From the NCBI GenBank assembly GCA_049840735.1, contig JASGJN010000021.1:224001-288000 (forward strand): a stretch of DNA of 64,000 nucleotides. Reading direction: 5' to 3'. Source of the DNA: Anaeromyxobacter sp. (lineage in GTDB: Bacteria > Myxococcota > Myxococcia > Myxococcales > Anaeromyxobacteraceae). This document shows positions 38,801 to 40,945 of the stretch, one piece after another (the first letter of the stretch is position 1; each line of letters begins with the position of its first letter). Made by a program: the position numbers.

Positions 38801-40945
38801 GTACGCCGTCGAGCTGGTGCGCCGCACGCGCCCCGGCGAGCCGGGCGCGCCCGACTTCGTGAAGGACAACGTCTCCTGGGGCGCCGGTCCGCGCGCCAGC
38901 CAGTACCTGGTGCTGGGCGCCAAGAGCCGCGCCATCCTCGACGGCCGCATGGCCGCCAGCGAGGAGGACGTCCGCGCCCTGGCGCGCAACGTCCTCGTCC
39001 ACCGCGTCATCACCAACTTCCGCGCCGAGAGCGAGGGCGTCACCAGCCAGCAGATCGTGGAGCGGCTGGTGGAGAAGGTCAGGGTGTGAGGGGCGCAGGT
39101 GGTCGCCTCGGCTCCGCGGCAGGGGCCGGTTCACCCGAATCCGTTCGGGCTGAGTCCTTCGACTTCGCGCCCGCGGGGCGGGCGCTACGCTCAGGACGAG
39201 CGGAGTCGAAGCCCAGGCGCTGTCGGTCCCCGTTCATCCTTCGACTCCGGGCCCGGAGAGTCGGAGGCGGCCGGGACGGAGCCCGGGCCCTACGCTCAGG
39301 ACGAACGGGATGCGAACGGCGCACGGGCCCAGGTGGCAGCTCCGGTCGGGCAGAGCGCAGCGGCAGCGGAGCGGCCGCGGAGTCGAAGCCCAGGTCGGCA
39401 CCGGGACCAGCAGGCTGTCGGTCCCCGTTCATCCTTCGACTCCGGGCCCGGAGAGTCGGAGGCGGCCGGGACCGAGCCCGGGCCCTACGCTCAGGACGAA
39501 CGGGATGCGAACGGCGCACGGGCCCAGGTGGCAGCTCCGGTCGGGCTGAGCGTAGTGGCCTGGCAGGCGAATCCGTTCGGGCTGAGCGTAGCGGCCGCGC
39601 AGCGGCCGCGGAGTCGAAGCCCAGGGATCGGCCAGGGAGCGGAAAAGGGCCGTGATACGGACCTGGGTCCGCGGTACGGACCCCATCCGTTCGCCCTGAG
39701 CGTAGCCGCCGTCCGCCAGGACGGCGGCGAAGTCGAAGGGGCGAACGGGATCCGCCTTCGCACGGTTCTTGAACTGCTCCGAGGCATGAAGCCCTTCTTC
39801 GTCTACATGCTGGAGTGCGCCGACGGCACCTACTACACGGGCCACACCGAGGATCTCGAGGCGCGCCTCGCCGAGCACCAGGCCGGCGAGACGCCGGGGT
39901 ACACGAAGAAGCGCCGCCCGGTCGAGCTGGTGTGGTGCGCCGAGTTCGCCCGGCGGGACGAGGCGCTCGAGCGGGAACTCCAGATCAAGGGCTGGACGCG
40001 GGCCAAGAAGCAGGCGCTCATCGAGGAGGACTGGGGTGAGATCAGGCGGCTCGCGCGAGGGCCTGACCGCAAGCTGCGACCCCGTTCATCCTTCGACTTC
40101 GCTTGCCCTGAGCGTAGCGCCGCCCCGGCGGCGCGGAGCCGAAGGGCTCAGGACGAACGGGATACGAACGGCTCGCGGGCCCCGGGAGCAGATCCGTTCG
40201 GGCTGAGCGTAGCGGCCGCGGAGCGGCCGCGGAGTCGAAGCCCAGGCGCTGTCGGTCCCCGTTCATCCTTCGACTTCGGGCCCGGAGCGTCAGCGGCAGG
40301 CGGGACCAGGCCCGGGCCCTACGCTCAGGACGAACGGGATACGAACGGCTCGCGGGCCCCGGGAGCAGATCCGTTCGGGCTGAGCGTAGCGGCCGCGGAG
40401 CGGCCGCGGAGTCGAAGCCCGGGCGCTGTCGGTCCCCGTTCATCCTTCGACTTCGGGCCCGGAGCGTCAGCGGCAGGTGGGACCGAGCCCGGGCCCTACG
40501 CTCAGGACGAACGGGATACGAACGGCTCGCGGGCCCCGGGAGCAGATCCGTTCGGGCTGAGCGTAGCGGCCGCGGAGCGGCCGCGGAGTCGAAGCCCGGG
40601 CGCTGTCGGTCCCCGTTCATCCTTCGACTTCGGGCCCGGAGCGTCAGCGGCAGGTGGGACCGAGCCCGGGCCCTACGCTCAGGACGAACGGGATACGAAC
40701 GGCTCGCGGGCCCCGGGAGCGGATCCGTTCGGGCTTAGCGTAGCGGCCGCGGAGCGGCCGCGGAGTCGAAGCCCGGGCGCTGACCAGCGTCGAAGCCCAG
40801 GGAGTCACCGGAACCATGGCTGACACCCCCCGCCGCCCGCTGCTCGATCCCGCCGTGCTGGCCCGGCTGGGCACGCTCAAGCTGCGCGTGCGCGCCATCA
40901 CCGAGGGGATCCTCACCGGCCTGCACAAGTCCCGCACCACGGGCA

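Follow-up and report, generated by a model that had tools for sequence, protein, structure and literature searches.

A GIY-YIG nuclease gene flanked by hairpin repeats in Anaeromyxobacter is probably the cognate nuclease of the repeats and lies outside the Ssn clade

Does a small nuclease gene that lies between two arrays of palindromic repeats act on these repeats, or does it share a spacer with them by accident? A locus of Anaeromyxobacter sp. raises this question. In the window (the whole stretch of 64,000 nt that was analysed), the 1.7-kb spacer between the stop codon of a moxR gene and the ATG of a DUF58 gene holds a GIY-YIG domain between two hairpin arrays (Table 1). An earlier note on this DNA had proposed a nuclease, not a tyrosine transposase associated with REPs (RAYT), tied to its own palindromic repeats. 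As described below, the link proved much stronger than the note had claimed; the idea itself is not new. Small GIY-YIG nucleases flanked by their own hairpins, with the analogy to RAYTs, have already been published as the Ssn/SRM system by Chenal et al. 2025 (PMC11893778, cited throughout from its accessible sections). There, Ssn nucleases of the SsnA type are flanked by SRM hairpins and cut them as single-stranded DNA upstream of the tag, and the analogy to IS200/REP is drawn.

Table 1. Features of the moxR–DUF58 region, in positions of the window
Feature	Position	Strand	Remarks
moxR-type AAA+ ATPase gene, upstream host gene	38061..39089	+	Pfam AAA_3 7.5e-61, AAA_lid_2
Upstream hairpin array	39141..39740	mixed	7 full copies and 1 partial
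Upstream array, outermost copy	39141-39213	+	encloses - copy 39155-39203
Upstream array, copy	39237-39308	-	
Upstream array, degenerate copy	39342-39390	+	
Upstream array, copy	39432-39503	-	
Upstream array, partial copy	at 39537	+	
Upstream array, copy	39573-39621	+	
Upstream array, last copy	39687-39740	+	ends 45 nt 5' of ATG 39786
GIY-YIG domain, 94 aa	39786..40067	+	UPF0213-related repeat-associated clade; Pfam GIY-YIG
Full nuclease ORF, 345 aa	39786..40823	+	nuclease domain and 251-aa repeat-coded tail; stop overlaps DUF58 start by 8 nt
First downstream hairpin	40089..40160	-	inverted relative to last upstream copy; 21 nt past the domain; + copy nested in loop
177-bp tandem array, 3.6 copies	40146..40782	mixed	59 codons per unit; one + and one - hairpin per unit
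DUF58/vWA gene	40816..41723	+	Pfam DUF58 3.4e-43; apparent frameshift at C run 40931-40933
BatA/vWA gene, next in operon	41720..43885	+	Pfam BatA 2e-19

The earlier description of a GIY-YIG domain between repeat arrays was borne out: Pfam placed the domain at residues 4-75 numbered from ATG 39786 (E 6.6e-18), with arrays on both sides. The copy numbers given with it, five upstream and six downstream, had to be revised to seven full copies and a partial one upstream and to eight copies, plus one nested inside the first, downstream. The strict alternation of orientation noted for six downstream copies is there because of a single 177-bp tandem duplication with 98% matches between its 3.6 copies. 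The downstream array is thus one recent tandem duplication, not six separate insertions. On either side of the gene, one hairpin (the outermost upstream copy and the first downstream copy) carries a second copy of opposite strand within its loop. No sigma-70 promoter or terminator was found in 39000-40900. Thirteen more hairpin copies lie elsewhere in the window, singly or as inverted pairs (3634, 21808, 25647-30503, 46410-46932 and 53386-56193). An intact orthologue of the DUF58 gene was found, and the frameshift read in the gene of the window is possibly an assembly error caused by a long-read indel; glycosidase-like ORFs at 44053-45151 are split in a similar manner, possibly also by long-read indels.

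The hairpin occurs in 455-491 copies in this genome, depending on the pattern used, in ≈ 296 clusters of which 212 are single copies. The form here is CCGTTCG followed by a short stem and TGAGCGTAG; an inner hairpin, GRAGTCGAAG and the stem partner come next. The general form across hosts is CGTTCG, a 4-bp stem, GAG, a variable loop or inner hairpin, (T/A)CGA and the complementary stem. The conserved 5' tag, which is unpaired, is CCGTTCG in this genome, and CGTTCG was seen in 130 flank matches of metagenomic loci. The earlier note had called the element a GTAG-tagged REP. GTAG is found only inside a long variant of the hairpin and is lacking from the short variant, which is common elsewhere. 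With GTAG internal, the hairpin does not fit the definition of a GTAG-tagged REP given for TnpA-REP in the accessible part of PMC3479197. The motif GTCGAAG is absent from the accessible text and four supplements of Di Nocera 2013 (PMC3733652), whose consensus sequences GTAG-1 to GTAG-24 and CGTC-1 to CGTC-4 stand in figures, and we found no mention of GIY-YIG in these parts of that paper. A scan of nine loci against Rfam gave one chance match only, leaving the hairpin without an Rfam model.

Two variable stem pairs were complementary in 459 of 479 genome copies, compared to a mean of 123 after shuffling, and the inner hairpin reached 5 bp or more in 356 of 379 copies and came in 200 different sequences. 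Thus, structure, tag and core are kept while the stems vary. Using a standard folding model, the common short copy of this genome folded no better than shuffled sequences (z -1.3). Tandem sheared G-A pairs, to which the folding model assigns no score, could arise in the GAG/CGA core. The hairpin also forms large arrays without an adjoining GIY-YIG gene at C19:65768-67713, C20:211270-211998 and on contig C13 near 597351. In two loci of Dehalococcoidia (L019 and L026), 14-bp tandem arrays of half a hairpin, in up to ≈ 39 copies, lie 5' of the gene.

Pfam detected no domain beyond GIY-YIG in the protein, and hence no Y1 HUH transposase match; NCBIfam gave no match. Residues Y7, Y17, G19, R27, E64 and W70 are invariant in the clade, and H31 and K68 are conserved in at least 90%. 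The triad Y7/Y17/E64 corresponds to the catalytic Y6/Y17/E64 of SsnA. Like the Ssn proteins, which are characterised by a single GIY-YIG domain of ≈ 95 aa with catalytic Tyr, Tyr and Glu, the protein thus has one such domain of 94 aa. An AlphaFold model of these 94 residues (pLDDT 92) best matched UPF0213 and Slx1 structures; the closest structure by sequence was 1zg2 (E 1.5e-15), and UPF0213 proteins were the top two in the fold search. The ratio dN/dS was below 1 in nine of nine nuclease pairs (range 0.02-0.71), which points to purifying selection on the gene.

To assess the association of gene and repeat, we counted hairpins around homologues in this and other genomes. In this genome, 14 copies lie within 1.5 kb of the gene, in the second-densest 1.8-kb interval of the genome; random 282-bp segments had copies on both sides within 300 nt in 0.14% of 66,399 positions. 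As the earlier note had reported, no copy lies within 1.5 kb of the other GIY-YIG genes, the YhbQ-like paralogue (nearest 63 kb) and uvrC (38 kb), or within 3 kb of the Y1_Tnp genes, where the nearest hairpins were 27.9 and 3.4 kb from the two best matches and 15-34 kb from four weaker ones.

Of 87 homologue loci taken from genome contigs, the best 80 were scanned: a narrow pattern was positive in 43 and a tag pattern in 63, and the tag-negative loci carried visible variants of the hairpin. A structural pattern was built from these variants. With this pattern, fitted afterwards to these loci, a hairpin was found within 300 nt in 91 of 93 clade rows (64 two-sided), compared to 1 of 19 housekeeping UPF0213 rows and 4 of 22 Ssn rows. 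Rows shorter than 75 aa, L281, L089, two rows of L084 and five viral Ssn loci picked with an NTS pattern were excluded from these counts and from the SRM and tag counts given below. The density around clade loci was 8.8 hairpins per kb at 0-150 nt versus 0.27 at 1-2.5 kb, the pattern being derived from the same loci. Because of this fitting, the pattern was applied unchanged to fresh metagenomic loci, the best 80 of 572 homologue loci. A hairpin was present within 300 nt in 77 of the 80, two-sided in 51, whereas shuffled flanks gave 1.1 (maximum 3); in the three misses, the repeat was present with a mismatch. Passive linkage, which the earlier note had named as a possible refutation, does not account for flanking in 77/80 loci against ≈ 1/80 in shuffles: the gene–repeat link is not passive.

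The flanking copies are oriented. In the metagenomic loci, the nearest copy was + in 51 of 60 cases upstream and - in 61 of 68 cases downstream, placing the tags outward, and the last upstream and the first downstream copy of the window fit this rule. Named insertion sites (56 neighbours scanned of 85 listed) include mutA–meaB, nrdR–SpoU-type methylase, yqeY–dnaG, rnc–era, recA–recX, an ABC transporter operon, and positions after coaBC, miaE and a ribonucleotide reductase. The hosts named on the tree belong to Pseudomonadota, Chloroflexota, Latescibacterota, Actinomycetota and Bacteroidota. Gene and repeat move jointly as a cassette, with one copy before, an inverted copy after and the tags outward, and the cassette occupies many unrelated gene junctions across phyla. 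By eye, variants of the hairpin track protein subclades, such as the Microbacterium and yqeY–dnaG groups. Two loci outside the clade, L084 and L089 (Omnitrophota and Planctomycetota), have GAG..CGAAG-like hairpins upstream, beside tRNA-like sequence.

Within the genus, we surveyed 37 genomes, scoring the gene as present at E 1e-24 or better. It was found in 14, one of which has two copies, and was assembled at the moxR–DUF58 site in 11 and probably in a twelfth. In this genus the cassette is usually single-copy, located at moxR–DUF58 and often lost. The same-genus orthologues, offered earlier as support, are not independent, since most represent one syntenic insertion, so that per-genome chance values do not multiply. 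Independent support for the link comes from the other phyla and the other insertion sites.

Other genomes had an almost empty spacer, held repeats but no gene (G041, G162), kept a 5' remnant of the gene (G164) or carried an unrelated insert (four genomes). In general, the moxR–DUF58 spacer acts as a landing site: a different insert with simple-repeat flanks was present at 4 of 30 loci. These inserts of 530-630 nt (L295, L296, L300 and L309, in G124, G170, G173 and G168) are flanked by inverted 6-nt tandem repeats of the GGACCT/GGACTT type, and the one in L296 encodes a 113-aa four-helix 23S_rRNA_IVP protein on the opposite strand. The alternative insert looks like a second small-gene cassette flanked by repeats. 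In another genus of the family (L092, in G094), the nuclease cassette follows a BatA-like gene, apparently at another junction of the same operon.

The median number of hairpin copies was 82 in the 14 genomes with the gene and 6 in the 23 without it. No gene-positive genome had 15 copies or fewer, compared to 15 of the 23 gene-negative ones. The p-values obtained in the analysis (4e-5 and 0.007) overstate, because relatives are not independent. Eight of the 23 gene-negative genomes keep 23-134 copies, three of them being 99-100% complete, and the site remnants in G164, G041 and G162 account for only some of these. Gene presence mapped on a DUF58 tree of 29 genomes required nine changes, at least six of them forced. 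The nuclease and DUF58 trees of 12 genomes agreed weakly (Mantel rho 0.22, p 0.04), so that ancestral gain followed by losses and re-acquisition at the same site are indistinguishable.

The gene is not the closed gene of ≈ 95 aa that had been described. The frame from ATG 39786 has no stop near codon 95 (40073) and stays open to TGA 40821-40823. In fact, the spacer 39090-40820 is wholly open in the nuclease frame; the other two frames are interrupted upstream by 7 and 2 stops and downstream by 7 and 4. Since the upstream spacer is open throughout, translation may alternatively start at GTG 39099, giving 574 aa. An open upstream frame is not a general trait of the family, as stops are present there in most orthologues. 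No sequencing run contained the locus (best share 0.12). We rejected an assembly error as the reason why the stop is missing, because the orthologues share the same RG(P/K)DR frame.

At 11 of 11 syntenic loci (two rows duplicating genus values and one without DUF58 were left out), the nuclease frame runs through 41-748 nt of dissimilar repeats and ends -8 to +8 nt from the DUF58 ATG. At these loci, 12 of 22 other frames were open; where the gap exceeded 300 nt, the nuclease frame was open in 6/6 cases versus 3/12 for the others. When read in the - orientation, 86% of 358 hairpin copies are stop-free. The downstream - copies being nearly without stops, the gene can read through the array. At moxR–DUF58 sites without an insert the spacer measures about -6 to +21 nt, and close coupling of moxR and DUF58 is therefore the likely ancestral state of the host. 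In-frame fusions were present in 21 of 80 homologue loci, with MeaB, SpoU/TrmJ-type, pseudouridine synthase or PurK partners; 14 of these 21 have the GIY-YIG–SPOUT domain pair. Locus L060 has a tandem pair of clade domains in frame with a SpoU-type methylase. Of 150 representative proteins 105 could be scored, and 49 of these carry repeat-coded peptides after the domain, compared to 0.8 in shuffles. In a crude test over 80 loci, fusion or coupling was seen for 31/61 nuclease frames and 32/122 control frames; 30 of the 61 loci stop early and uncoupled, and read-through is thus not universal. We infer that read-through reflects selection by the host operon against polarity.

We conclude that the cassette is real and widespread, that it lies outside the Ssn clade and lacks the Ssn motif, and that it is not a RAYT. 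The gene is most likely the cognate nuclease of a widespread hairpin-repeat family and Ssn-like in its action. By analogy with SsnA, the protein would bind the hairpin as single-stranded DNA and introduce a hydrolytic, metal-ion-dependent nick near the 5' tag. With the tags outward, both nicks would lie beyond the ends of the cassette, one on each strand. The repeats could then be spread and rearranged by host repair and by recombination among copies, which might occasionally move or delete the cassette. GIY-YIG enzymes form no covalent intermediate, so that such an enzyme, unlike a RAYT, is incapable of strand transfer itself. The inverted downstream copy, nearly stop-free, would allow the gene to read across the array; the resulting translational coupling to, or fusion with, the host gene that follows would spare the operon polar effects of the insertion. 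A more far-reaching proposal is tentative, and we regard it as possible rather than probable: a second, independent origin from UPF0213 stock, in which a 94-aa hydrolytic nuclease spreads a cross-phylum repeat without a transposase, and the cassette sits at operon junctions, harmless since its translated, stop-free repeat tail hands ribosomes on or fuses to the next protein.

Other readings of the cassette must be weighed against the cognate-nuclease reading. A Y1/HUH transposase or host recombination might move the repeats, with the nuclease gene, captured once, as a passive passenger. Such a history would fit the repeats that persist in gene-negative genomes, the Y1_Tnp matches of this genome, which could act in trans, and the unrelated inserts taken up by the moxR–DUF58 spacer. 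It is quite unlikely given that the flanking is oriented and almost universal, over a dozen unrelated sites being known from five named phyla, and given the apparent purifying selection on the nuclease, the distance of the Y1 genes from any hairpin, and the parallel case of Ssn, which cuts its own repeats (PMC11893778). Nor would we expect, although the chance is slightly better, that the enzyme recognises the hairpin or a cruciform in order to resolve structures or to restrict incoming repeat-bearing ssDNA, without multiplying the repeats. SsnA does limit transformation by repeat-bearing DNA in Neisseria (PMC11893778), the nearest folds are UPF0213 and the structure-specific Slx1 nucleases, and the gene is mostly single-copy and syntenic in the genus; yet a defence or housekeeping role leaves unexplained the many insertion sites, the terminal inverted arrangement, the nested copies and the patchy presence on the host tree. 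It is compatible with the cognate-nuclease reading as a later, domesticated role.

Could the protein simply be a divergent Ssn with a divergent SRM, adding nothing to the 2025 paper? Its identity is 37% to a Neisseria SsnA-like protein versus 35% to YhbQ, and clade and Ssn have W70 and a C-terminal Trp in common, both missing from housekeeping UPF0213. When a 44-row tree was rooted with four UvrC domains, neither a grouping of the clade with Ssn (AU 0.85) nor one with the housekeeping proteins (AU 0.80) was rejected, and no branch set the clade apart from all other rows; an independent origin is therefore not established and common origin with Ssn is tenable. We nevertheless find this reading very improbable. 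In the trees (the 143-row tree by a quick method), the window protein fell outside the clade of Ssn references, that is, SRM-flanked proteins including a N. gonorrhoeae locus and one from A. lipoferum 4B, a genome of PMC11893778. The references were set apart by a long branch (SH-aLRT 99-100). Profile scores were 67.5 bits against Ssn, 99.1 against housekeeping proteins and 157.5 against the own clade without close kin. The published degenerate SRM pattern had no match in 39090-40830 and matched 1 of 80 metagenomic loci; within 300 nt, SRM was found in 0/93 clade rows versus 7/22 Ssn rows, and a CGTTC tag nearby in 76/93 versus 0/22, partly within the same five genomes. The authors of PMC11893778 equate Ssn with cd10448, and in their table none of the four Anaeromyxobacter rows is enriched in SRM or has a strict cd10448 match, although three pass one looser test. 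Since the protein lies outside the Ssn clade and its flanks lack SRM, it represents a second lineage with its own repeat. This looks like a second, separate version of the Ssn-type partnership of nuclease and repeat, with another enzyme branch and another hairpin. In the literature searched, which covered few subscription papers, we found nothing on the clade or on such pairing beyond Chenal 2025 and Dunin-Horkawicz 2006.

These results put forward a candidate enzyme for a repeat family that is abundant, at ≈ 480 copies in this genome, and has neither an adjoining RAYT nor an Rfam model. The clade offers direct enzyme–substrate pairs and perhaps ssDNA nucleases with new specificities beyond those of Ssn. 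Should cleavage spread the repeats, this would bear on the multiplication of palindromic repeats that are not of the GTAG type and lack a dedicated transposase. In annotation, long GIY-YIG calls and fusions with MeaB, TrmJ-type proteins or PurK can be read-through of a cassette and not a functional partnership.

How does the cassette compare with known systems? With Ssn it shares a single GIY-YIG domain of ≈ 95 aa with the same catalytic residues, flanking by oriented hairpins with an unpaired 5' tag in hundreds of copies per genome, and insertion between housekeeping genes such as sufB–sufC. Unlike Ssn, the clade is separate and has a UPF0213-like core (CxDGxY, GHT, RRPV); its hairpin, unlike SRM, has a CGTTCG tag, a GAG/WCGA core and an expandable inner hairpin; and the gene often lacks its own stop and carries repeat-coded tails and fusions. 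Cleavage by the clade is a prediction.

As with RAYTs and REPINs (accessible parts of PMC3479197 and bioRxiv 10.1101/2021.07.10.451892), a single-copy gene is flanked by its own repeats at the same extragenic site in related genomes, and the repeats form inverted doublets and tandem arrays. Like RAYTs in the latter source, the gene keeps to one site and is mostly vertical and often lost in the genus. RAYTs are also rare in mobile collections; no close member of the clade was among the viral matches, and two of the 50 matches listed from a plasmid collection resembled it. Unlike a RAYT, the gene encodes a GIY-YIG and not an HUH/Y1 enzyme, with no covalent strand transfer, and the foot of the hairpin lacks the 5' GTAG tetranucleotide of the REPs described for TnpA-REP in the accessible part of PMC3479197.

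The housekeeping UPF0213, YhbQ and bacterial Slx1-like proteins (PDB 1zg2, 1ywl) are the best matches of the domain by sequence and fold, and housekeeping members co-occur with the clade gene in the same genomes. Unlike the clade, they form a group of their own (97), without the two Trp residues and without repeats (1/19). Finally, the accessible part of Dunin-Horkawicz et al. 2006 (PMC1564403) describes a single GIY-YIG–SPOUT fusion, in Erythrobacter litoralis, and leaves open a role with RNA or domain mobility. This fusion, likened by domain pair alone, has the same pair as most of our fused clade loci, in which, unlike in that reading, the SPOUT fusions are read-through of a repeat-flanked cassette.
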